From positions 1,184,001 through 1,248,000 of the forward strand of contig CBDCYI010000011.1 of NCBI GenBank assembly GCA_965224085.1: a stretch of 64,000 bases of DNA, read 5' to 3'. The number at the start of each line of letters is the position of its first letter. Within the stretch, counting starts at the first letter, position 1. Positions 5,148 through 57,243 of this stretch are shown here, in pieces. A program made the translations under genes and the position numbers. The notes beneath the pieces were generated by a model. That model made no database searches, had not been told where the DNA came from, and saw only the letters and a program-made list of their open reading frames with translations. The DNA is from Candidatus Marinacidobacterales bacterium (lineage in GTDB: Bacteria > Acidobacteriota > Vicinamibacteria > Marinacidobacterales > SMYC01).

Positions 5148-5225
5148 GGCTTCGCGGAGCAGCCAGGAGTGCTCGTCCGGTTGTCAGCCGGAAGGTCGCG
5201 GGTTCGAATCCCGCCGGAGCCGCCA
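5148..5225 (+). tRNA. tRNA-Asp(GTC), atypical (C at position 8)
   Basis: Acceptor GGCTTCG/CGGAGCC, D stem GAGC/GCTC, anticodon arm TCCGG-TTGTCAG-CCGGA, T arm GCGGG-TTCGAAT-CCCGC, G73 and encoded CCA. Confidence 0.88.
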
Positions 5226-5232
5226 TTTTCGT

Positions 5233-5309
5233 CGGAGTGTAGCGCAGACTGGCAGCGCGCCCGGCTTGGGACCGGGAGGCCGATGGTTCGAATCCATCCG
5301 CTCCGACCA
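5233..5309 (+). tRNA. tRNA-Pro(TGG)
   Basis: Acceptor CGGAGTG/CGCTCCG, anticodon arm CCCGG-CTTGGGA-CCGGG, T arm GATGG-TTCGAAT-CCATC, A73 and CCA. Confidence 0.92.
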
Positions 5310-5322
5310 GTTTGTGTTCGAT

Positions 5323-5397
5323 TGAGGCGTGGTCGATGGGTAAGGCACCCGGTTGTTACCCGGGCTCATGTAGGTGCGAATCCTACCGCGGCTTCCA
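5323..5397 (+). tRNA. Degenerate tRNA, anticodon GTT (Asn); probable pseudo-tRNA
   Basis: Anticodon arm CCCGG-TTGTTAC-CCGGG and T stem GTAGG/CCTAC are intact and CCA is present. T loop is TGCGAAT and the acceptor stem has 3 mismatches. Confidence 0.65.
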
Positions 5398-29752: not shown

Positions 29753-30102
29753 ATGCGCCTCAAGTCCCTGGTCGCGGTCGTCGTTGCCTCCCTCGCCGCA
29801 GGGATCAGTCTCGGTCAGTTCTCGTTGTTCGAGCGCTTGGACCTCGGCGGGGAGCCGGATCTCTCGAGCGCGCCGGAGTTCGTGTTCGCGCGCGTGCAGT
29901 TCGAGGGAACGTCCGGGCGCCGCCGCGGGGGATGGGCACACGACTACCCGCGGGCCGAGCAGAACCTTCTCAGAATCCTCGACGAGCTGACAGCCGTGCA
30001 CACCGAGCCCGCCGCCCACACGATCGTCTCGCTCGCGAGTCCCGAGATCATGAAGTACCCCGTGCTGTATTTCAGCGAGCCTGGCACGTGGGGCCTCACG
30101 GA
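29753..30102 (+). pseudogene. DUF4159-domain protein, 5' part (interrupted by the IS256/twintron)
   Basis: Signal peptide, FVFARVQF, WAHDYPRAEQNL and YP.LY.SEPG.W. It joins in frame to 39423 once the element and one TSD are removed. Confidence 0.9.
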
Positions 30103-30199
30103 GGGGATGGTCGAGTAGCTCAGCCATTCGGCTTTCGCCCTCACAGATCCGAGCGTGCGGCTTTCCCGCACTCGGCTCCTCCTGAAGGTATACCCGAAA

Positions 30200-31579
30200 T
30201 CAGACAAGGCAAGGTAGTCGGGACGGAGTGAGGTGAGGGACTGGTAGGGGAAAGCGCTCCAACAACAAGTGAAAACGAGGCCAGGTCATTCGGCGCTGAC
30301 TCCGCCGACGAAGGCTTCGAAACCACAACCGTGTCACCTCCTCAGAAAAGGATTGGAGAGAGCGGATGTTGCTGGGAAGTCCGTAGTACGCGTAGTGACC
30401 GCGCAGCACCTGGCAAAGCCAGCGATGCTGGACGGCGACTGGAGCATGCATACGTTGCTTCGCGCGAAGCCGTAGCGACTTGAGTTTGGCTCGTAGCCGC
30501 TGGCTCTGCGTTTTGCGCTTCACGACGAAACGGCCATCGCGGGTTCTCCCACAATAATGAGTGAAACCCAGGAAAGCGAACGTCGCACACCGCCGAAGGC
30601 CCCGTTGCTCGCGTGACAAGGAAGGTAATCTCCCGAACTCGAGCAAACGGGTCTTGTTCTCGTGGAGCGCAAGCCCGAATCGGGCTAGTCGCTCCTTGAG
30701 CGCTCTCATCATCCTGCTGGCATCGGTCCGATGCTGGAAGCCCATGACGAAGTCGTCAGCGTATCGCACGATGGAAATACGGCCTTGTGCTTCGAGCCGG
30801 CGCCATCGATGAACCCACAGATCTAGAACGTAGTGCAGAAAGACGTTAGCCAAGAGCGGGCTCACACCTGCCCCTTGCGGTGTCCCTTCAGTTGTCTCGC
30901 TCCACTCTCCTTTCTCCAGTACGCCGGCTCGCAACCACTGACGGATGAGTCGAAGGATGCGTTTGTCGGCGACCCGGTGCGAAAGCATCCGCATCAACCA
31001 CTCGTGGTCCACCGAGTCGAAGAACTTGCGGATGTCCGCGTCGAGAACCCAGTTCACGCGTTGCGTCATGAGCGCGGTGTGGAGCGCGTGCAACGCTTGG
31101 TGCGGGCTCCGTCCGGGCCGAAACCCGTACGAGAACCCGATGAAATCGACTTCGTAGACGGCGCTCAAAACCTCGGCTACCGCTCCTTGGACAATCTTGT
31201 CTTCCAGTGCGGGGATGCCAAGAGGGCGCTTTCCGCCATCCGACTTAGGAATGTACACGCGCCGCACCGGTAGTGGTCGGTAGCGACCGGCGTGTACCCG
31301 CGAGCAAAGATCCTTGATGTTGCTCACGAAGTTCTTCTCGTAATCGGCGACAGTCTCTCCGTCGACACCAGCGCTTGCGCTGCGCTTCAACCGACGAAAC
31401 GCTCGATAGAGCGCTTCGTGATCCACGTGATGCAGCAACGCAGTGAACCGAGCCTTTCTATCTCGCTTCGCTGCTTCGTTCACCCGCGTGAGATTTGGCG
31501 GTAAGGCGACCCGGCGCTGTGTCCGGACCTTAGCCCTCTCCCGTGGGTTCCCTCCAGGCCGATCCCTTCCCTCCACCAT
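30200..31579 (-). CDS. ltrA: Group II intron A reverse transcriptase/maturase (no endonuclease domain); start uncertain
   Basis: RPLGIP, SYGFRPGR, DADIRKFFD, GTPQG, RYADD and FLGF motifs plus domain X. Confidence 0.93.
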   Translation of the reverse strand: MVEGRDRPGGNPRERAKVRTQRRVALPPNLTRVNEAAKRDRKARFTALLHHVDHEALYRAFRRLKRSASAGVDGETVADYEKNFVSNIKDLCSRVHAGRYRPLPVRRVYIPKSDGGKRPLGIPALEDKIVQGAVAEVLSAVYEVDFIGFSYGFRPGRSPHQALHALHTALMTQRVNWVLDADIRKFFDSVDHEWLMRMLSHRVADKRILRLIRQWLRAGVLEKGEWSETTEGTPQGAGVSPLLANVFLHYVLDLWVHRWRRLEAQGRISIVRYADDFVMGFQHRTDASRMMRALKERLARFGLALHENKTRLLEFGRLPSLSREQRGLRRCATFAFLGFTHYCGRTRDGRFVVKRKTQSQRLRAKLKSLRLRAKQRMHAPVAVQHRWLCQVLRGHYAYYGLPSNIRSLQSFSEEVTRLWFRSLRRRSQRRMTWPRFHLLLERFPLPVPHLTPSRLPCLV

Positions 31580-31606
31580 CTCGTTGCCTTCGATAGCTTC
31601 CTCAGT

Positions 31607-33639
31607 GTCGGGTCGGAGGGGGCGCACCGCAGCGCTGACCCCCGTCCGCCGCTCAAACCGGACATACAGTTTTCCCGTATCCGGCTTTCACAAAGGTTGG
31701 ATTATTCATCGCGGCTTGATGGAAGGAATCAGGAAGACAAAGCGTACGAGGCCCATCTCATCGTAGAGCTGACGCTCCGGGAGCTGCTTCCACCCCCGAC
31801 AGCGCCAGCGTTTGAACCGATGCGACCAGATACGTCGCAGGATCCAACGATCGAGACGCGCGAAGAGCTTGCGGACGTGAGCTTTATGATAGTAAAGACC
31901 CCAACCGCGAATAACCGGGTTGATCTCGTCGATTAGCTGCTGCGTACTCACAGGAGCTTTGCGACAGGTCCGTCGCCGAATCTGATCCTTGAAGTGCTGG
32001 AGCGACTTCTGTCGAGGGTACGCGTACAGGTCACCCTTGCGGACACCCGTACGGATCTTGTGTGAGGGTAGGGCCAAAGGGCGACTACCCCGCTTGATCT
32101 TGTATCCCAAGAACTCGAAGCCGTGTGCAACGTGAACGATACGAGTCTTCTCCACGTTCAAGGTTACACCCAACGTCGTAAGGATCATCCGGGCTTCGGC
32201 CAGCACCTTCTGGGCCTCTGCCTTGGTGCAGCATGTCACGACCCAGTCGTCGGCATACCGCGTCAGGCGATAGCCACGATGGCGCATCTCCCGATCAAAC
32301 GGAGTCAAAAGGACGTTACTTAAGATCGGTGAGACCACACCGCCTTGCGGTGCACCTTGCTCGGTCGGGAGCCGTCTCCCCTCCGCCATGCAGCCTGCTT
32401 TGAGCATGCTGCGAATAAGACGAAGGACGCGACCATCCGACACTCGCTTGGCAACAAGAGCGAGGAGCTTCTCATGGTCCACAGTCCCAAAGAAATTGGA
32501 AAGATCCGCATCCACGATCCACTCGTAACCCTCTTCGATCTCTTGCCAGATCTTGCGTAAAGCATCCTTTGTCGATCTTCCTCGTCGATATCCGAAGCTG
32601 GCGGCATCGAACACCTGCTCGAAGATCGGTTCCAACCGGTTCTGCAGTGCCTGCTGACACACGCGGTCATAAACGGCCGGAATGCCGAGCGGGCGGAACT
32701 TTCCCGGTTGTCCAGCCTTGGGAATGAGTTTCTGCCGAACAGGTAGTGGACGATAGGCATCGGTCTTGAGCTCCTCATGGAGTCGGTTGAGGTGCGCATC
32801 AAGCTGCTCCTCAAACTCGTCCAGAGTTTGTCCATCGATGCCACCGGCACCCTTGTTCCGCTTCACTCGGTTCCAGGCCAGCTCCAAGTTCTTCCGCTTG
32901 TATATCTTGTCCACCAGAGAGTGGACCTTCCTCTCACCCGTTGGGTTCAACCAGGCCGACAGTTTCCTCGGACGATCACTTCTGGGTCTTTCACTAAAGG
33001 AACTTATCCGCGTCATCGCCCTTACTCGTCTGTCATCCTTGTTGTCACCAACCACCTTTGCCAGCCCCCTTCCCCAGCCCACTCGGCTGCCGATCTCTCG
33101 ATCACACGACTTTCACCGCGCTTCAGGTACTATTGGGCTGTCCGACGACTCACCCGGCTTCACTTCCCATTTCGCTCTCGCTTATAGGGTCGCTTATCCC
33201 GACGCCACTCGGGAACCCAATGAGCCCTCCTGGGGTCACGTCCAGATCTTCCGTACCGTGCCGTCCGCAAACACCTTGATTCGGTGGGTGAATGAGAACG
33301 CCTTCGCCTCCATAGTGCAGGCTCGACCTTGCCCCACCTTTGGCCGACCGGTTCATCAACGGGGTCGCCCCCTCGATTACGGCCCGGTACTGCTCCGCAT
33401 ACCCTTCAGATTCCACCTCGCGGTGGACACCCTGTCCTCCAGTTGTCCAGTGGACAGAACCCGAACTTAGGTACATCCCCTTGGCAGTAGCCATCGTTTC
33501 CAACTTCGTGCCCGTTTAGGGTTCTCCTTATCCGCGTTCCCCGGCCAGCGAGGCGTTACCCCCGCTTTTGGATATGGCGCTCCTCATCCGAGCACCAGAG
33601 GGACTTCAACCTTCCTGATCTGGACGCTGCCCAGCACAC
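31607..33639 (-). mobile_element. Group II intron B (inner, class F-like, tentative), left copy
   Basis: 5' GTGTG at 33639 and 3' ...CCGACCCGAC at 31607; mirror image of 35878-37910. Confidence 0.92.
31706..33016 (-). CDS. ltrA: Group II intron B reverse transcriptase/maturase (no endonuclease domain)
   Basis: RPLGIP, SFGYRRGR, DADLSNFF, GAPQGG and RYADD motifs; INPVIRGW..YY in domain X. Confidence 0.94.
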   Translation of the reverse strand: MTRISSFSERPRSDRPRKLSAWLNPTGERKVHSLVDKIYKRKNLELAWNRVKRNKGAGGIDGQTLDEFEEQLDAHLNRLHEELKTDAYRPLPVRQKLIPKAGQPGKFRPLGIPAVYDRVCQQALQNRLEPIFEQVFDAASFGYRRGRSTKDALRKIWQEIEEGYEWIVDADLSNFFGTVDHEKLLALVAKRVSDGRVLRLIRSMLKAGCMAEGRRLPTEQGAPQGGVVSPILSNVLLTPFDREMRHRGYRLTRYADDWVVTCCTKAEAQKVLAEARMILTTLGVTLNVEKTRIVHVAHGFEFLGYKIKRGSRPLALPSHKIRTGVRKGDLYAYPRQKSLQHFKDQIRRRTCRKAPVSTQQLIDEINPVIRGWGLYYHKAHVRKLFARLDRWILRRIWSHRFKRWRCRGWKQLPERQLYDEMGLVRFVFLIPSIKPR

Positions 33640-34134
33640 ACTATGAATCGGTCCGACTTCCGGCCTCAGCTCAGCACCGCGCTTCGGTTTTCCCTTGCGC
33701 GACGCCCCCATCGGTGACCATTCCGATGGACCCGGCCGGACCTCCTGGGTCCCGAAAGGAACTCTTCGTACGTGATGTGGTCCACGACCCCGGCGGAGCG
33801 TAACCATCTCGCGATAGCGATGGCCCACATGCTGCCTTCATTGACGGGAATCAACTCGGCCTTCCGCGATATTCAGCATTTCGAGGCTACATTCACACAC
33901 CCTGCACGACCCCTGTCTACGCTTCGGACCCCGCGTTGCCACGACGCCCGCAAGACTCGGTCCCGACCTGTCCGCTACGACTTTTGGTCGGATTGGACTT
34001 CCACCCATAGGCTCCTTTCAGTTAGCCCAGCGCACTCCCGCCGGCTGTTGAATTTGGGGTAGCGGCGGCTCCTTGGCCGGCCTAAGAATAGGTCTGCCAA
34101 ACAACCGTCTCCAGAGGGGGACAAGGAGCCACCA

Positions 34135-35430
34135 ATGCCTAGGAAATCAAAGAAGCCAGTAAGAAAGCAAACGCACTCGCCTACGGGCAAGGTAGTTGGC
34201 CAAGCCGGTCAGATACTGCTACCGATGATAGCTGGGATCGCGGCCACGAAGGCGGATCTGACGGAATGGGTGTACGAGCAAGGACTGACAGCTCTGCACC
34301 TACTGCTCAGAGAGGACGCCGAGGAGGTCGCGGGGCTCAAGGGCAAGCACGAGAAGGAGCGAACTCATAACCACTGGGGGAGCACGAACGGAGAGCTGAG
34401 CTTCGGTGGTCGTCGCATCCAAGTGTCGCGACCTCGAGTGCGTTCGAAGTCTGGTGAGGAGGCGTCGCTTCCACACTTCGAAGCCTTCCGCGAAGAAGAC
34501 CCGCTTCCAGAGCGAGTGTTGAATCAGATCTTGGTGGGGGTATCGACCCGAAATTACGAACGGAGTCTGGACAAACCCGCGGCCAAGTTGAAGTCTCGTG
34601 GCACGAGCAAGAGTGCCGCCAGCCGTCACCTCGTAAGCCAGACGACGAAGAAGCTCGAGCAATACCTGTCTCGGCGGCTAGAGGAGTACGAACTTGCGGC
34701 ACTGATGATGGATGGCCTTGAGGTGGCCGGCCAGACCGTCGTCGTAACTCTCGGTATCACAATAGATGGAACGAAGGTGCCCCTGGGTATATGGCTGGGC
34801 TCGACGGAAAACTCTCGGGTGTGCACCGCGATGTTGCAGGACCTTCTCGAGCGAGGCTTGCGCGTCGATGAGTCGATTCTCTGTGTAGTGGACGGAGGCA
34901 AAGGTATCCGCAAGGCACTCGTCGACGTGTTGGGGGATCTCGCGGTCATCCAAAGGTGCCAGATCCATAAACTCCGAAATCTTCGCTCGTACCTTCCCAA
35001 GTCTCGTCACGCCTACGTGCTCCAGACGATGAAGAAAGCCTACAAGTGCAAGAGTGCCGACAAGGCGCGCAAGCGACTTCAGGCATTGGTGTCGTGGCTC
35101 GAGCGAAACAGCCACGATGAAGCTGCCGGAAGCCTTCGCGAAGGGATGGAAGAGACGCTCACGGTCGTGAAGCTCGCTCTGCCCGAGTTACTTCGCCAGT
35201 CTCTTGCCACGACGAACGCCATTGAGAATCTCAACGGAACCATTCGAAGAGTATCGAGAAACGTCAAGCGTTGGAAGAGTCCTTCGATGGTTCGCCGATG
35301 GACCGCTCTCGGCGTCGTCACGGCGGAGAAGAAGTTCCGGCGTATCAAAGGCTATCGCCATATGGGCGCTCTCGTTCACGCGCTTAGAAGCAAACAGAAA
35401 TCTCTTGACAGCGATGAGTTTGCTGCCTAA
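34135..35430 (+). CDS. IS256-family (Mutator-like) DDE transposase
   Basis: GVSTR.Y, LMMDG, VVDGGKG, QRCQIHK.RN and TTNAIE.LN..IRR; AAGGAG RBS. Confidence 0.95.
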   Translation: MPRKSKKPVRKQTHSPTGKVVGQAGQILLPMIAGIAATKADLTEWVYEQGLTALHLLLREDAEEVAGLKGKHEKERTHNHWGSTNGELSFGGRRIQVSRPRVRSKSGEEASLPHFEAFREEDPLPERVLNQILVGVSTRNYERSLDKPAAKLKSRGTSKSAASRHLVSQTTKKLEQYLSRRLEEYELAALMMDGLEVAGQTVVVTLGITIDGTKVPLGIWLGSTENSRVCTAMLQDLLERGLRVDESILCVVDGGKGIRKALVDVLGDLAVIQRCQIHKLRNLRSYLPKSRHAYVLQTMKKAYKCKSADKARKRLQALVSWLERNSHDEAAGSLREGMEETLTVVKLALPELLRQSLATTNAIENLNGTIRRVSRNVKRWKSPSMVRRWTALGVVTAEKKFRRIKGYRHMGALVHALRSKQKSLDSDEFAA

Positions 35431-35877
35431 GAGTATTCACAGGTGCCGCCGCTACCCGACCAAATTCAACAGCCGCCGGGAGTGCGCTGGGCTAACTGAA
35501 AGGAGCCTATGGGTGGAAGTCCAATCCGACCAAAAGTCGTAGCGGACAGGTCGGGACCGAGTCTTGCGGGCGTCGTGGCAACGCGGGGTCCGAAGCGTAG
35601 ACAGGGGTCGTGCAGGGTGTGTGAATGTAGCCTCGAAATGCTGAATATCGCGGAAGGCCGAGTTGATTCCCGTCAATGAAGGCAGCATGTGGGCCATCGC
35701 TATCGCGAGATGGTTACGCTCCGCCGGGGTCGTGGACCACATCACGTACGAAGAGTTCCTTTCGGGACCCAGGAGGTCCGGCCGGGTCCATCGGAATGGT
35801 CACCGATGGGGGCGTCGCGCAAGGGAAAACCGAAGCGCGGTGCTGAGCTGAGGCCGGAAGTCGGACCGATTCATAGT

Positions 35878-37910
35878 GTGTGCTGGGCAGCGTCCAGATC
35901 AGGAAGGTTGAAGTCCCTCTGGTGCTCGGATGAGGAGCGCCATATCCAAAAGCGGGGGTAACGCCTCGCTGGCCGGGGAACGCGGATAAGGAGAACCCTA
36001 AACGGGCACGAAGTTGGAAACGATGGCTACTGCCAAGGGGATGTACCTAAGTTCGGGTTCTGTCCACTGGACAACTGGAGGACAGGGTGTCCACCGCGAG
36101 GTGGAATCTGAAGGGTATGCGGAGCAGTACCGGGCCGTAATCGAGGGGGCGACCCCGTTGATGAACCGGTCGGCCAAAGGTGGGGCAAGGTCGAGCCTGC
36201 ACTATGGAGGCGAAGGCGTTCTCATTCACCCACCGAATCAAGGTGTTTGCGGACGGCACGGTACGGAAGATCTGGACGTGACCCCAGGAGGGCTCATTGG
36301 GTTCCCGAGTGGCGTCGGGATAAGCGACCCTATAAGCGAGAGCGAAATGGGAAGTGAAGCCGGGTGAGTCGTCGGACAGCCCAATAGTACCTGAAGCGCG
36401 GTGAAAGTCGTGTGATCGAGAGATCGGCAGCCGAGTGGGCTGGGGAAGGGGGCTGGCAAAGGTGGTTGGTGACAACAAGGATGACAGACGAGTAAGGGCG
36501 ATGACGCGGATAAGTTCCTTTAGTGAAAGACCCAGAAGTGATCGTCCGAGGAAACTGTCGGCCTGGTTGAACCCAACGGGTGAGAGGAAGGTCCACTCTC
36601 TGGTGGACAAGATATACAAGCGGAAGAACTTGGAGCTGGCCTGGAACCGAGTGAAGCGGAACAAGGGTGCCGGTGGCATCGATGGACAAACTCTGGACGA
36701 GTTTGAGGAGCAGCTTGATGCGCACCTCAACCGACTCCATGAGGAGCTCAAGACCGATGCCTATCGTCCACTACCTGTTCGGCAGAAACTCATTCCCAAG
36801 GCTGGACAACCGGGAAAGTTCCGCCCGCTCGGCATTCCGGCCGTTTATGACCGCGTGTGTCAGCAGGCACTGCAGAACCGGTTGGAACCGATCTTCGAGC
36901 AGGTGTTCGATGCCGCCAGCTTCGGATATCGACGAGGAAGATCGACAAAGGATGCTTTACGCAAGATCTGGCAAGAGATCGAAGAGGGTTACGAGTGGAT
37001 CGTGGATGCGGATCTTTCCAATTTCTTTGGGACTGTGGACCATGAGAAGCTCCTCGCTCTTGTTGCCAAGCGAGTGTCGGATGGTCGCGTCCTTCGTCTT
37101 ATTCGCAGCATGCTCAAAGCAGGCTGCATGGCGGAGGGGAGACGGCTCCCGACCGAGCAAGGTGCACCGCAAGGCGGTGTGGTCTCACCGATCTTAAGTA
37201 ACGTCCTTTTGACTCCGTTTGATCGGGAGATGCGCCATCGTGGCTATCGCCTGACGCGGTATGCCGACGACTGGGTCGTGACATGCTGCACCAAGGCAGA
37301 GGCCCAGAAGGTGCTGGCCGAAGCCCGGATGATCCTTACGACGTTGGGTGTAACCTTGAACGTGGAGAAGACTCGTATCGTTCACGTTGCACACGGCTTC
37401 GAGTTCTTGGGATACAAGATCAAGCGGGGTAGTCGCCCTTTGGCCCTACCCTCACACAAGATCCGTACGGGTGTCCGCAAGGGTGACCTGTACGCGTACC
37501 CTCGACAGAAGTCGCTCCAGCACTTCAAGGATCAGATTCGGCGACGGACCTGTCGCAAAGCTCCTGTGAGTACGCAGCAGCTAATCGACGAGATCAACCC
37601 GGTTATTCGCGGTTGGGGTCTTTACTATCATAAAGCTCACGTCCGCAAGCTCTTCGCGCGTCTCGATCGTTGGATCCTGCGACGTATCTGGTCGCATCGG
37701 TTCAAACGCTGGCGCTGTCGGGGGTGGAAGCAGCTCCCGGAGCGTCAGCTCTACGATGAGATGGGCCTCGTACGCTTTGTCTTCCTGATTCCTTCCATCA
37801 AGCCGCGATGAATAATCCAACCTTTGTGAAAGCCGGATACGGGAAAACTGTATGTCCGGTTTGAGCGGCGGACGGGGGTCAGCGCTGCGGTGCGCCCCCT
37901 CCGACCCGAC
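35878..37910 (+). mobile_element. Group II intron B (inner), right copy, inserted in domain III of intron A
   Basis: 5' GTGTG after ...ATTCATAGT. EBS1 ACTATG (36201-36206) is the exact complement of CATAGT. D5 AAGCCGGATACGGGAAAACTGTATGTCCGGTTT; 3' ...CCCGAC, followed by ACTGAGGAAG. Confidence 0.93.
36501..37811 (+). CDS. ltrA: Group II intron B reverse transcriptase/maturase
   Basis: Translation identical to 31706-33016; YADD motif. Confidence 0.94.
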   Translation: MTRISSFSERPRSDRPRKLSAWLNPTGERKVHSLVDKIYKRKNLELAWNRVKRNKGAGGIDGQTLDEFEEQLDAHLNRLHEELKTDAYRPLPVRQKLIPKAGQPGKFRPLGIPAVYDRVCQQALQNRLEPIFEQVFDAASFGYRRGRSTKDALRKIWQEIEEGYEWIVDADLSNFFGTVDHEKLLALVAKRVSDGRVLRLIRSMLKAGCMAEGRRLPTEQGAPQGGVVSPILSNVLLTPFDREMRHRGYRLTRYADDWVVTCCTKAEAQKVLAEARMILTTLGVTLNVEKTRIVHVAHGFEFLGYKIKRGSRPLALPSHKIRTGVRKGDLYAYPRQKSLQHFKDQIRRRTCRKAPVSTQQLIDEINPVIRGWGLYYHKAHVRKLFARLDRWILRRIWSHRFKRWRCRGWKQLPERQLYDEMGLVRFVFLIPSIKPR

Positions 37911-37937
37911 ACTGAGGAAGCTATCGAAGGCAACGAG

Positions 37938-39317
37938 ATGGTGGAGGGAAGGGATCGGCCTGGAGGGAACCCACGGGAGAGGGCTAAGGTCCGGACACAG
38001 CGCCGGGTCGCCTTACCGCCAAATCTCACGCGGGTGAACGAAGCAGCGAAGCGAGATAGAAAGGCTCGGTTCACTGCGTTGCTGCATCACGTGGATCACG
38101 AAGCGCTCTATCGAGCGTTTCGTCGGTTGAAGCGCAGCGCAAGCGCTGGTGTCGACGGAGAGACTGTCGCCGATTACGAGAAGAACTTCGTGAGCAACAT
38201 CAAGGATCTTTGCTCGCGGGTACACGCCGGTCGCTACCGACCACTACCGGTGCGGCGCGTGTACATTCCTAAGTCGGATGGCGGAAAGCGCCCTCTTGGC
38301 ATCCCCGCACTGGAAGACAAGATTGTCCAAGGAGCGGTAGCCGAGGTTTTGAGCGCCGTCTACGAAGTCGATTTCATCGGGTTCTCGTACGGGTTTCGGC
38401 CCGGACGGAGCCCGCACCAAGCGTTGCACGCGCTCCACACCGCGCTCATGACGCAACGCGTGAACTGGGTTCTCGACGCGGACATCCGCAAGTTCTTCGA
38501 CTCGGTGGACCACGAGTGGTTGATGCGGATGCTTTCGCACCGGGTCGCCGACAAACGCATCCTTCGACTCATCCGTCAGTGGTTGCGAGCCGGCGTACTG
38601 GAGAAAGGAGAGTGGAGCGAGACAACTGAAGGGACACCGCAAGGGGCAGGTGTGAGCCCGCTCTTGGCTAACGTCTTTCTGCACTACGTTCTAGATCTGT
38701 GGGTTCATCGATGGCGCCGGCTCGAAGCACAAGGCCGTATTTCCATCGTGCGATACGCTGACGACTTCGTCATGGGCTTCCAGCATCGGACCGATGCCAG
38801 CAGGATGATGAGAGCGCTCAAGGAGCGACTAGCCCGATTCGGGCTTGCGCTCCACGAGAACAAGACCCGTTTGCTCGAGTTCGGGAGATTACCTTCCTTG
38901 TCACGCGAGCAACGGGGCCTTCGGCGGTGTGCGACGTTCGCTTTCCTGGGTTTCACTCATTATTGTGGGAGAACCCGCGATGGCCGTTTCGTCGTGAAGC
39001 GCAAAACGCAGAGCCAGCGGCTACGAGCCAAACTCAAGTCGCTACGGCTTCGCGCGAAGCAACGTATGCATGCTCCAGTCGCCGTCCAGCATCGCTGGCT
39101 TTGCCAGGTGCTGCGCGGTCACTACGCGTACTACGGACTTCCCAGCAACATCCGCTCTCTCCAATCCTTTTCTGAGGAGGTGACACGGTTGTGGTTTCGA
39201 AGCCTTCGTCGGCGGAGTCAGCGCCGAATGACCTGGCCTCGTTTTCACTTGTTGTTGGAGCGCTTTCCCCTACCAGTCCCTCACCTCACTCCGTCCCGAC
39301 TACCTTGCCTTGTCTGA
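37938..39317 (+). CDS. ltrA: Group II intron A reverse transcriptase/maturase; start could be 37938 or 38034
   Basis: Translation identical to the left copy; YADD motif. Confidence 0.93.
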   Translation: MVEGRDRPGGNPRERAKVRTQRRVALPPNLTRVNEAAKRDRKARFTALLHHVDHEALYRAFRRLKRSASAGVDGETVADYEKNFVSNIKDLCSRVHAGRYRPLPVRRVYIPKSDGGKRPLGIPALEDKIVQGAVAEVLSAVYEVDFIGFSYGFRPGRSPHQALHALHTALMTQRVNWVLDADIRKFFDSVDHEWLMRMLSHRVADKRILRLIRQWLRAGVLEKGEWSETTEGTPQGAGVSPLLANVFLHYVLDLWVHRWRRLEAQGRISIVRYADDFVMGFQHRTDASRMMRALKERLARFGLALHENKTRLLEFGRLPSLSREQRGLRRCATFAFLGFTHYCGRTRDGRFVVKRKTQSQRLRAKLKSLRLRAKQRMHAPVAVQHRWLCQVLRGHYAYYGLPSNIRSLQSFSEEVTRLWFRSLRRRSQRRMTWPRFHLLLERFPLPVPHLTPSRLPCLV

Positions 39318-39422
39318 TTTCGGGTATACCTTCAGGAGGAGCCGAGTGCGGGAAAGCCGCACGCTCGGATCTGTGAGGGCGAAAGCCGAATGGCTGAGCT
39401 ACTCGACCATCCCCCTCACGGA

Positions 39423-54929: not shown

Positions 54930-56085
54930 GTGCGTCCAGCTAAGGCTGGCGTGTTCAGTGGGAGTCAGTCCCACCGGGGCAAGAGCCAGAAGCCCCGTAG
55001 CTTGGATAGCAGGAAGGAGGGAAACCGAATGACCTGAAGCCTATCGACAAAGCCATCGTAAGGGATGGTGAGCGAGTCATCGGGCCGTAACGCAAGTGAA
55101 CGCAGAAGTAGCCTCGAAAGAAGTCACTCCGGAGGCCGAGCCCTTGTTTGGGGGGTGAAGGCAGCATGGGACGTCGCAGATTGGCCGAAGCGTCCTCGCA
55201 CTCCGGCGGGGTCGCAGCGACAGCACGGTGACAAGGACACGCTAAGCAACTGGAGAGGCCCTCCTCGTCCCATAGGGAGACCCGTGAAGCAACGCCGTCA
55301 GTATAACCGGCATCCCCCGGGAAATCGGACGGCAGGCGAGAGGGAGTCGGAGGGGTCCATATTAGCGATGAAGCGGAGTAATGCCCGTGGAGCGAAGGGG
55401 CCCTACTGTACAAGGAATCTTTTGACCAATGGGAGGCAGAGGCGATGACACAAGCGCCGATAGAGCTGCAAGACCTGAGACGAAAGATATATGCGAAGGC
55501 GAAGGCGGATAAGCGCCATCGCTTTTGGGGCATCTACGTCCACATCTGCAAGGAGGAAACGCTTCGCAAAGCCTACGACCGGGCAAAGGCCAACGGCGGC
55601 GCCCCGGGAATTGATGGGGTGACGTTCGAGTCCATTGAGGCCTCGGACGGAGGGGTTGCGAGTTTCGTCGAGCAGTTACGGGACGAGTTGGTGAGAGACG
55701 ACTACCGGCCCCAGCCGAATCGGCGCAAGGAGATACCCAAGGACGGCGGCAAGAAAGTCCGCGTGCTGGGTATTCCCACGATCCGAGACCGGGTGGTGCA
55801 AGGTGCCGTCAAGCTCATCTTGGAGCCCATTTTCGAGGCAGACTTCCAACCAGGCTCGTTTGGGTACCGGCTTAATCGGAGTGCTCATCATACGATACAT
55901 CGGGTCGTGGTGAGCATCACTCAGGAAAAGACACGCGTCATCGATTTGGATTTGAAAAGCTACTTCGACAATGTCAGGCACCACATATTGATGGAGAAAG
56001 TGGCTCGTAGGGTCAGCGACCGACAAGTGCTTCGCCTGTTGAAGTTGATGCTCAAAGCGAATGGCAAGAAAGGAGTTCCTCAGGG
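54930..56085 (+). mobile_element. Group II intron C, 5' half only
   Basis: 5' GTGCG at 54930; D1/D3 motifs (GAAGGCAGCAT, GGAGTCGGAGGGGTCCATATTAGCGATGAAG...GAAGGGGCCCT); D5/D6 absent. Confidence 0.85.
55445..56085 (+). pseudogene. ltrA: Group II intron RT/maturase truncated after the PQG motif
   Basis: APGIDG, R.LGIPTIRDR, DLDLKSYFD and GVPQG, then a junction; no YADD. Confidence 0.9.
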
Positions 56086-57243
56086 CTCGGCCGCATTGTG
56101 CGGGTAGGCGTTCCAATCGTCGATGCGCCCTTTCCACGCCGGGCGGTAGTCGAGCCGGGCATGGTTGCCGTAAATCGTGTAGGTGAATGTTGACACCAGC
56201 ACACACAACGACGCCCGCGGTTTGCCGTGAAGTGCGCACACGAAAAAAGGCATCGCGTCGTAGTGGTCACCGCACACGATACGCGCGGCGTACACGCCGC
56301 AGGGGAGATCCTCCGGGATGGTGAACGAGAAGTCCGTCTTCCAGCCGAAGTCATAGATGTCGTCTTCGTGAAAGTGAATCGCGCCGTATTGCCCCGGTGC
56401 GTGACGCCAGCACATCTCGTTACCGTCCCAGCGCGCGCCGGTCATAGCACGCGCCGGCAGGTTGATGAGCTCACCGTGGAGCGCCAAAGCGGTATCTTCG
56501 ATGCGGGTGGTCGAGATACCGCGGCTGAAGTCCCATGCGGCCACCGGAGGGTCGAGGGGCGTGTCGGCGGAGAGAGCTTCCGCAGTGAACGCACGAGCGA
56601 AGATACGAGGGGAGTCGATCTTTCCGTTGTAGAGGTGGCTTGCGGTATCCTTCGTGAACAGGATCTGGTCAACGGCTGACGTGTCCGCGTCCGTGTGCAT
56701 CGTGATCCAGAACTCGCTCGCCACCCCGTCCGACAACGGCAGGCTGCCGACTCGGAGCTCTCCCGCGTCGGCATGAAGCGCCAGAAACACCCGGTACCAG
56801 CGTCGATGGATGAGAGCAGAGCCGGTGCTGACCTTTGCGCCCCCCACGCGCCCCTCGATGCTCCCGGTACTGTCGAGCGACAAGCGGGCGAGCGACTCGG
56901 TGCCGGCGCCCAAACACATGATTACCTGCTCGCCCCCTCCGACAGCGGTCGGCCAGATGTCGGCAACCAGAGTGAAGGAATCCATCGACGGGAGACGGGC
57001 GGCGGTTTTGATGAGCGCATACGAGCCGGGTGAGAACGATTGCTCGCGAGAGGGATAGCTGCCCTCGAACTCGGACGCTACCGGATTCTCGATGAGACCG
57101 GGACCGGCCGGATTGGGATCGGCGCATACCACCCGCACCAGCCGTGCGTGGTAAGGATCGCGCGAAAGGCTGCTGACCTTGAACTCGATGCTTTCGCCGG
57201 CGCGCACCGACAATCGATTGGTATAGCCGATCAATGAAAGCAT
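56086..57243 (-). pseudogene. N,N-dimethylformamidase large-subunit family protein, 3'-truncated
   Basis: GY..RLS...GE.I.FKVSS, DPNP.GPG, LamG-like region, YGAIHFHEDD and TFTY..Y.N; ends at the junction with the intron fragment. Confidence 0.8.

Follow-up and report, generated by a model that had tools for sequence, protein, structure and literature searches.

The stretch analysed here (the window) comprises 64,000 nucleotides (nt) of contig CBDCYI010000011.1 (positions 1,184,001 to 1,248,000) from the genome of a Candidatus Marinacidobacterales bacterium of the phylum Acidobacteriota. It contains a group II intron encoding a reverse transcriptase (RT), the inner intron, which is inserted in domain III (D3) of a second group II intron, the outer or host intron. 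The features of the two introns are as follows (window positions; + denotes the forward strand, − the reverse strand):

35482-39407 (+): outer (host) intron, whole
35482-35877 (+): 5′ part of the outer intron, with domains I and II (D1, D2), junction J2/3 (GTCGGA) and the 5′ strand of the D3 basal stem (35866-35872)
35516-35739 (+): D1 of the outer intron (Rfam D1D4-6, 140.9 bits)
35872-35877 (+): intron-binding site 1 (IBS1) CATAGT, the last 6 nt of the 5′ "exon" of the inner intron and the 5′ strand of the host D3 internal loop
35878-37910 (+): inner RT-encoding group II intron, 2033 nt, with 5′ end GTGTG (35878) and 3′ end GAC (37908-37910)
36195-36211 (+): inner hairpin with exon-binding site 1 (EBS1), stem GCCT/AGGC, loop G-CACTATG-G, EBS1 ACTATG at 36201-36206
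36383-36390 (+): the inner intron's own D3 motif, AATAGTAC
36501-37811 (+): protein encoded by the inner intron (RT domain, maturase (X) domain, YADD motif); alternative upstream GTG start at 36435
37828-37910 (+): inner domains V and VI (D5/D6; Rfam RF00029, 41.3 bits against a gathering score of 40)
37911 (+): position +1 (A), putative IBS3
37911-39407 (+): 3′ part of the outer intron, with the rest of D3, domain IV (D4) carrying an RT open reading frame (ORF), and D5/D6
37943-37951 (+): remaining outer D3, GGAGGGAAG, followed by the 3′ strand of the basal stem at 37952-37958
open frame to 39317 (+): outer RT ORF, YADD present
39337-39407 (+): outer D5/D6 (Rfam, 53.2 bits)

The flanks of the inner intron read ...GAAGTCGGACCGATTCATAGT on the 5′ side and ACTGAGGAAG...GGAGGGAAGGGATCGG on the 3′ side. 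These flanks and the positions of ACTATG and AATAGTAC, as given by the initial annotation, were re-read in the sequence and all were found as described. The same annotation had claimed that deletion of 35878-37910 restores J2/3 and D3 of the outer intron. In agreement with this, natural uninterrupted copies of the outer intron are 100% identical across the junction, and the restored word CATAGT-ACTGAGG is present in four full-length outer introns and one fragment in the genome. Rfam searches placed the outer D1 upstream and the outer D5/D6 downstream of a complete inner intron, as expected for a twintron. Contigs of the DNA run X2 bridge both junctions of the inner intron, and thus the twintron is not a mis-assembly; the empty form is present in this run too. 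Run X2 comes from another study than run X1, which is the best DNA match and possibly the source of the window.

Both termini of the inner intron (5′ GUGYG and 3′ AY type) are kept in its homologs. The inner ORF matched the Pfam families RVT_1 (1e-42) and GIIM (1.4e-15), and no endonuclease (HNH) domain was found by Pfam in the protein, which stops about 5 residues past the GIIM match; the inner intron is therefore of the endonuclease-lacking type. Its D1 showed only a weak resemblance to Rfam D1D4-3 (27.9–32.7 bits). The outer intron is without an endonuclease domain as well. The insertion site is located about 125 nt past the D1 model match and about 120 nt ahead of the host RT coding region. 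An uninterrupted copy of the outer intron (locus L101) folds into a D3 with a 7-bp basal stem (CCGATTC/GGATCGG), an internal loop and a distal hairpin. The 5′ strand of this internal loop is AUAGUA, and the inner intron inserts between its U and A. The same fold is adopted by two further D3 sequences, that of the inner intron itself and that of a third intron family.

Seven copies of the inner intron were found in the genome, each 100% identical over 2033 nt. Six of them occupy the identical site of the outer intron, i.e., 6 of 11 outer-intron D3 sites, and in these six twintrons the outer parts are 99.9–100% identical. The seventh copy (C9:853583-855615) lies in a different, ORF-degenerate intron of the Rfam type D1D4-4, where the site, GGGTCGGTAGT before and AGCGTTGAAA..GGAGCAAAGGGGCCC after the insertion (GGTAGT/AGCG), is the homologous D3 position. 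This second host is also found empty (L102, 98.6–99.2% identical otherwise, with the same GGTAGT site), and two more copies of the D1D4-4 family are altered at position −2, reading CGTAAT (L103) and CATATT (window 55358-55363). In the whole genome the word CATAGTA occurs 145 times free and six times occupied. The occupied words amount to 6/11 of the outer-intron D3 sites and to 0/140 elsewhere (Fisher p = 3e-8), which shows that the placement is not due to chance.

Pairing of the EBS1 loop ACTATG (36201-36206) with CATAGT, which had been claimed from the window alone, was confirmed by covariation. Among 67 members of the surveyed clade (see below) complementarity was found at 6/6 positions in 58 and at 5/6 in seven, and two are tandem or duplicated cases. 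Compensatory changes of six kinds were observed in ten members:

IBS1 CGTAGT with EBS1 ACTACG: 3 members
IBS1 CGAATA with EBS1 TATTCG: 3 members
IBS1 CGTACT with EBS1 AGTACG: 1 member
IBS1 CATATT with EBS1 AGTATG: 1 member
IBS1 AGGAGT with EBS1 ATTCCT: 1 member
IBS1 GGAAGT with EBS1 ACTTCT: 1 member

Because the pairing script chose the best-scoring 6-mer of each loop, the scores are biased upward; the changes nonetheless fall at the same loop positions. The stem of the EBS1 hairpin covaries too (GCCT/AGGC, GCCC/GGGC, GCTG/CAGC). Position +1 is A in 53 of the 55 members with a 3′ flank, and a candidate EBS3 column (window 36246) fits one of only two members with a variant +1.

Related introns elsewhere were collected at 93 loci with a related RT: 13 from genomes, obtained with the inner RT against one genome per species, and 80 from metagenomes, these being the best among at least 580 relatives obtained with a five-protein alignment. 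The RT identity to the inner RT was 62–80% for 11 of the 13 genome loci and 66–82% for the best 80 metagenome loci, and thus 62–82% across the 91 loci analysed; for the other two (L019 and L020, 41–44% identity) no boundary was obtained and they were left out. The genome loci come from Planctomycetota, a Myxococcales metagenome-assembled genome (MAG), Gammaproteobacteria, Caballeronia, Paraburkholderia and an Acetobacteraceae MAG. The planctomycete Singulisphaera sp. Ch08 carries three of them (L011, L013 and L014); the RT ORFs of these copies are frameshifted, with longest open frames of 377 (L011), 255 (L013) and 428 (L014) amino acids.

Intron boundaries were set by BLAST with the ends of the inner intron. 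Dropped from the 5′ count were L049, whose contig begins within the intron, and L100, with 9 nt of flank only; seven flanks shorter than 60 nt were dropped from the 3′ count. A survey of the homolog flanks for D3 motifs, proposed by the initial annotation as a check, gave a clear D3 preference: 54 of the 67 usable 5′ flanks end in TAGT, and 51 of these 54 have a J2/3 word of the GTC(A/G)G or GGCGGA type 8–24 nt upstream. Five further 5′ flanks (5/67) carry one substitution in TAGT with the J2/3 word kept (CATATT twice, CGTACT, CACAGT, GGAAGT), and one (1/67) reads CGTAGC. On the 3′ side, 59 of 74 usable flanks begin with A and have a tail of the GGAG(G/C)(G/A)AAG type within 70 nt; nine (9/74) begin with A and have a shorter D3 of the ..CGAAGGGCCGAA type or no recognised tail, and six (6/74) do not begin with A. 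The target consensus from 49 unique flank pairs is ..gggaGtCgGa...g..CaTAGT before and A.cg.tgaag after the insertion point.

The two flanks also behave as halves of one D3. Positions −15 to −6 pair with the segment just past the tail, for example GTGCCCC/GGGGCAC, ACAACCC/GGGGTTGT and CCCTGTC/GACAGGG. The mean longest helix was 5.90 nt, as compared with 5.38 ± 0.13 nt for shuffled partners, and 5.90 was reached in 0 of 200 shuffles. At its gathering threshold, Rfam detected parts of a host intron on the same strand, either D1 upstream or D5/D6 downstream, in 14 of the 20 longest metagenome loci; at E ≤ 0.01 the same was true of four of seven genome loci. The host D1 types are D1D4-1, D1D4-3, D1D4-4 and D1D4-6, i.e., at least four Rfam families. 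Downstream RTs were sought in the 30 loci that offered 900 nt or more of downstream sequence and an ORF of 250 amino acids or longer. A same-strand group II RT from outside the clade was present in 24 of them and a tandem clade copy in one (1/30). These host RTs are 29–48% identical to the inner RT and mostly 26–57% identical to one another. The claim of the initial annotation, a hyperparasite homing to a conserved D3 motif, is supported by these results, the homolog flanks being overwhelmingly D3 halves of diverse host introns. At one of the loci (L058:2056-2238) the host intron is ORF-less, and its D5/D6 match shares sequence with an Rfam 5S rRNA match (42.3 bits).

In a tblastn search for plasmid members (5000 records), three were found at 60–80% identity and the rest below 60%; sampled rows under the best match were at 37% or less, a gap which indicates that the clade is discrete. 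The one plasmid member that was checked, from Paraburkholderia hospita, also lies in a D3 site. In a sample of 151 genomes of the phylum, a clade RT at E ≤ 1e-100 was found only in the window's own genome. D1D4-6-like introns are present in 24 of the 151, a count including the own genome and one unpublished genome, and elsewhere in the phylum 10 of the 27 examined loci of this type have an intact, unoccupied ..TAGTA D3 site. The 27-locus count left out L108 (unpublished genome G049) and the own-genome loci L111 and L130, and the AT-rich L114 match was discounted as spurious-looking. A common D3 motif together with a patchy parasite is as expected for a horizontally moving element. In a FastTree tree of 59 full-length members (midpoint-rooted, no outgroup), most members with targets other than D3 (L077, L092, L100 and L095) fall in one subclade, which also holds L097, whose 3′ flank is still D3-like; L073 is located elsewhere. 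Since this non-D3 subclade is nested among D3-homing members, D3 homing looks ancestral for the sampled clade.

From these data the inner intron is very probably an active, RT-encoding, endonuclease-lacking group II intron of a widespread and distinct clade, whose normal homing site is the internal loop of a host D3 above the basal stem. EBS1 (5′-ACUAUG) pairs with the conserved D3 word C(A/G)UAGU, and insertion occurs directly after it, ahead of the conserved +1 A. Retrohoming would take place into a DNA copy of the host intron, presumably primed at replication forks as for other endonuclease-lacking introns, and recognition beyond the approximately 7 paired nt would come from protein contacts or from target structure. 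Since the D3 motif is common to structurally different intron classes, one parasite can colonise several host families; two host families are occupied in this genome, which contains the inner intron and its hosts in combination as well as separately.

Several observations weigh against this reading. The flanks were called D3-like by regular expressions written for the purpose. Four of the 67 5′ flanks (L073, L077, L092 and L095) are not D3-like, no clear Rfam host match was obtained in 6 of the 20 metagenome loci (the match of L076 being ambiguous), and no host RT was found downstream in 5 of the 30 loci examined for one. The subclade of L077, L092 and L100, with EBS1 TATTCG, a 5′ flank ..GCGAATA, a 3′ end CCCGAG and non-intron flanks, is a branch retargeted to CGAATA; it is an exception to D3 homing and a natural control for the EBS1 assignment. 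At L028:294/295 and L091:3399/3400 the 3′ end of a clade intron abuts the next 5′ end head to tail, which could be a tandem, an intron-circle-derived junction or an assembly effect, and in L090 (~1500-1526) a GATAGT site is separated from the intron by a 13-nt duplicate of the intron 5′ end; L028, L090 and L091 were excluded from the stem and covariation tests. No EBS2-IBS2 pairing was detected: no column of a 64-sequence D1 alignment pairs with positions −7 to −14 above permuted data, the best columns of a 5-mer scan scoring 2.8–3.3 of 5 against maxima of 2.95–3.42 for permuted intron-flank combinations. Matches of the EBS2 type (5–6 bp) that had been spotted by eye in the window and in L008 were accordingly discarded as unsupported. 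A candidate pairing of the intron motif GGRATCYGAARGG with the host J2/3 word GTCRG was rejected, because 17 of 39 pairs were A-C mismatches (Fisher p = 0.21). With pairing limited to about 7 nt and 140 other CATAGTA words unused, a further read-out must exist; it could consist of protein contacts with the conserved J2/3 and +2 to +10 positions, or of target structure.

The alternative of a single ancient twintron, in which D3 was entered once and the composite was then inherited or transferred as a unit without any D3 preference, is hardly tenable. Copying of the composite is possible for the six twintrons of this genome, which are identical with outer parts 99.9–100% alike. However, identical copies of the inner intron are found in two unrelated hosts of this genome, empty copies of both hosts exist there, and in Singulisphaera sp. 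Ch08 the near-identical inner copies of L011/L014 and L013 occupy two different host intron families, with RTs only 35% identical. The host RTs, mostly 26–57% identical to one another and associated with four D1 families, stand against inner RTs at 62–82%, and inner introns so much more alike than their hosts exclude a single inherited composite. Targeting at the RNA level is also unlikely, though less so. Here the inner intron would reverse-splice into the single-stranded D3 loop of the host intron RNA (precursor or lariat), and DNA would be reached via cDNA and recombination or via retrohoming of the invaded host. Such a route would explain the exclusive use of D3 despite 7 nt of pairing and 140 other free CATAGTA words, the undetectable EBS2-IBS2 pairing and the presence of the twintron at both ends of one insertion sequence (IS, see below). 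On the other hand, an invaded host lariat has a split D3 and should reverse-splice poorly, the conserved host positions (−18, −16, −14 and +4 to +10) could equally be protein-DNA contacts, and DNA is the established target in bacterial retrohoming and retrotransposition.

As regards the order of splicing, the initial annotation had proposed that the host can splice or move only once the inner intron has been excised. D3 is a catalytic effector of group II introns. The 2-kb insert splits the host D3, and the host ribozyme would probably be fully active again only after exact excision of the inner intron. That the host probably needs the inner intron removed is suggested by the role of D3, by the splitting of a conserved, non-terminal loop and by analogy with the Euglena plastid and Trichodesmium twintrons. 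Among the alternatives, a tolerant host that splices and moves with the inner intron in place, the composite being the mobile unit and splicing being unordered, is the least improbable, although we consider it rather unlikely. The presence of identical twintrons at the two ends of one IS and at four loci elsewhere is in keeping with it. Plant mitochondrial twintrons with a never-spliced inner intron are known, there in D4 (PMC7049729), and mobility of the composite was considered for Thermosynechococcus (PMC2882425). Against it, the insert splits a conserved internal loop and not a terminal loop or D4, a folded inner intron keeps the host CAUAGU base-paired with its EBS1, and IS ends of one kind carry outer copies with and without the insert, which is what independent homing of the inner intron would produce. 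Two metatranscriptome-labelled runs match parts of the stretch as contigs, which hold no information on transcript levels or ends and whose uncovered parts carry no meaning. One X15 contig joins 35877 to 37911; since the same joint is found in the DNA run X2 and in the empty genome copies, it is ambiguous and is no evidence of splicing.

The initial annotation had also proposed that the variant D3 of the inner intron itself lowers self-insertion. The words at this position in 63 members are:

AATAGT: 40/63 members
CATAGT: 6/63 members
AGTAGT: 6/63 members
GGTAGT: 6/63 members
other: 5/63 members

The proposal is weak. AATAGT is the commonest word, and self-nesting was unseen: none of the seven inner copies in this genome is invaded, versus 6 of 11 outer sites (p = 0.04), and no clade member is found among the 24 host RTs. 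However, 6 of 63 members have a perfect CATAGT of their own, and natural insertions occur at sites mismatched at −6, namely GGTAGT in this genome and AGTAGT in L039, so that protection by this mismatch is at most partial. Taking these elements further, the cross-phylum clade may consist of dedicated parasites of the group II ribozyme core, which would read the D3 of any intron class by 7 nt of pairing plus a protein or structure read-out, with splicing and mobility of the host hinging on excision of the parasite. Such an intron-versus-intron arms race would have resistance alleles in the −2 variants of uninvaded D3 (CATATT at 55358-55363 and CGTAAT in L103) and self-protection in AATAGT. This wider picture is a tentative one, which we regard as possible and somewhat more likely to fail than to hold in all its parts.

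The twintron is part of a larger nest, and the remaining features of the window are:

30103-39414 (no strand): IS256/Mutator-family IS, a 9.3-kb composite with transposase, terminal inverted repeats and target duplication
34135-35430: Mutator-family transposase (Pfam Transposase_mut, 4.5e-42)
30095-30102 and 39415-39422: 8-bp target duplication, CTCACGGA
30110-34035 (−): second, mirrored copy of the entire twintron; its inner intron is at 31607-33639 (−)
~54951-56100: third group II intron (Rfam D1D4-4, 118 bits), with an RT ORF at 55445-56107, 3′-truncated
5148-5394: three-tRNA cluster (Rfam)

A target duplication of 8–9 bp is expected for the IS256/Mutator family. Each inverted arm (30103-34057 and 35460-39414) spans 3955 nt, with a single mismatch between the two, located in the 5′ exon (34041/35476). 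The outer intron interrupts both terminal inverted repeats of the IS, in each case 7 nt from the tip; 30095-39422 is a four-level nest of host gene, IS, outer intron and inner intron. In other genomic copies of this IS only one end bears a twintron, the outer intron of the opposite end being empty (e.g., the IS at C4:256456-257857). The outer intron homes into the IS end itself, and its presence in the IS ends probably disables transposition. RmInt1-type introns home into insertion sequences; the outer intron is like them in lacking an endonuclease domain and in sitting in a mobile element (the inverted repeats of the IS256 family), but here it has inserted into the inverted repeat proper, 7 nt from its tip, and so both ends are hit. 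Rearranged or truncated fragments of IS, outer intron and twintron were observed at C11:484183-487611 and C4:891077-895318 of genome G000; in one example an outer intron is followed by 446 nt of IS and then by outer positions 826-1893. Such fragments suggest recombination among the repeated copies. The D3 site of the third intron of the window, CATATT/A (55358-55364), is empty, and its change at −2 would mismatch the inner EBS1.

Twintrons and intron-into-intron homing are already known, the cases described in the accessible literature concerning D4, the ORF or one fixed site. In Methanosarcina acetivorans, a single archaeon, homing into related intron ORFs (D4) was reportedly described by Dai and Zimmerly in 2003; unlike here, to judge from the title of that report, no cross-class ribozyme motif across phyla is involved. 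The nested introns of this archaeon resemble the present ones in repeated site-specific homing into group II introns, described as a "perpetual homing site" (PMC4424553). The Thermosynechococcus elongatus twintrons consist of ORF-less TeI3 (F3) introns within TeI4 (F1) introns (PMC2882425). In these twintrons the insertion falls in domain IV, between the first and second ATG of the host ORF, whereas the present one is in the D3 loop of the catalytic core; their hosts form one related family, whereas here the hosts span at least four Rfam D1 families; and their inner intron borrows the protein of the host, whereas the present one encodes its own RT. In the Euglena plastid and in Trichodesmium, as here, an intron lies within a structurally important part of another (domain I in Trichodesmium), and the inner one must leave first for the outer one to fold, an order shown experimentally (PMC4424553, PMC4649490). 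Those are, however, single fixed twintrons in particular genes, and the present case is a mobile lineage defined by its target, with inner-first splicing as a prediction.

Class C (IIC) introns are like the inner intron in having no endonuclease domain, a short EBS-IBS pairing, no EBS2-IBS2 pairing and a generic structured target, but they insert after terminator hairpins or attC, and the inner intron inserts into the D3 loop of another ribozyme (PMC4424553, PMC12584367). An assignment to class IIC is not indicated: the target found here is a D3 internal loop instead of a terminator or attC hairpin, and IBS1 has 6 nt instead of 3–4. In the accessible literature intron-into-intron homing is described at D4 or its ORF (Thermosynechococcus, Methanosarcina, Porphyridium and lycophyte mitochondria) or in domain I (Trichodesmium), and the commonest neighbours of group II introns are other group II introns (PMC7306698). 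D3 is not among the specialised target contexts listed in a 2025 introduction (PMC12584367). No D3-homing lineage was found in the searchable literature on twintrons and intron targeting, where an earlier mention in intron-database notes or supplements is possible.

A mobile clade defined by a motif of the catalytic core would be a new target strategy beside the known ones, i.e., unique homing sites, terminator hairpins and attC sites, and would let a single parasite use hosts from different intron classes and phyla. Pipelines that miss the outer introns of twintrons (PMC8919778) will misread such loci in genome annotation. For the biology of group II introns, the clade would be a natural system for understanding how a ribonucleoprotein with about 7 nt of pairing reaches high specificity, and a natural switch that should silence the host intron until the parasite leaves.

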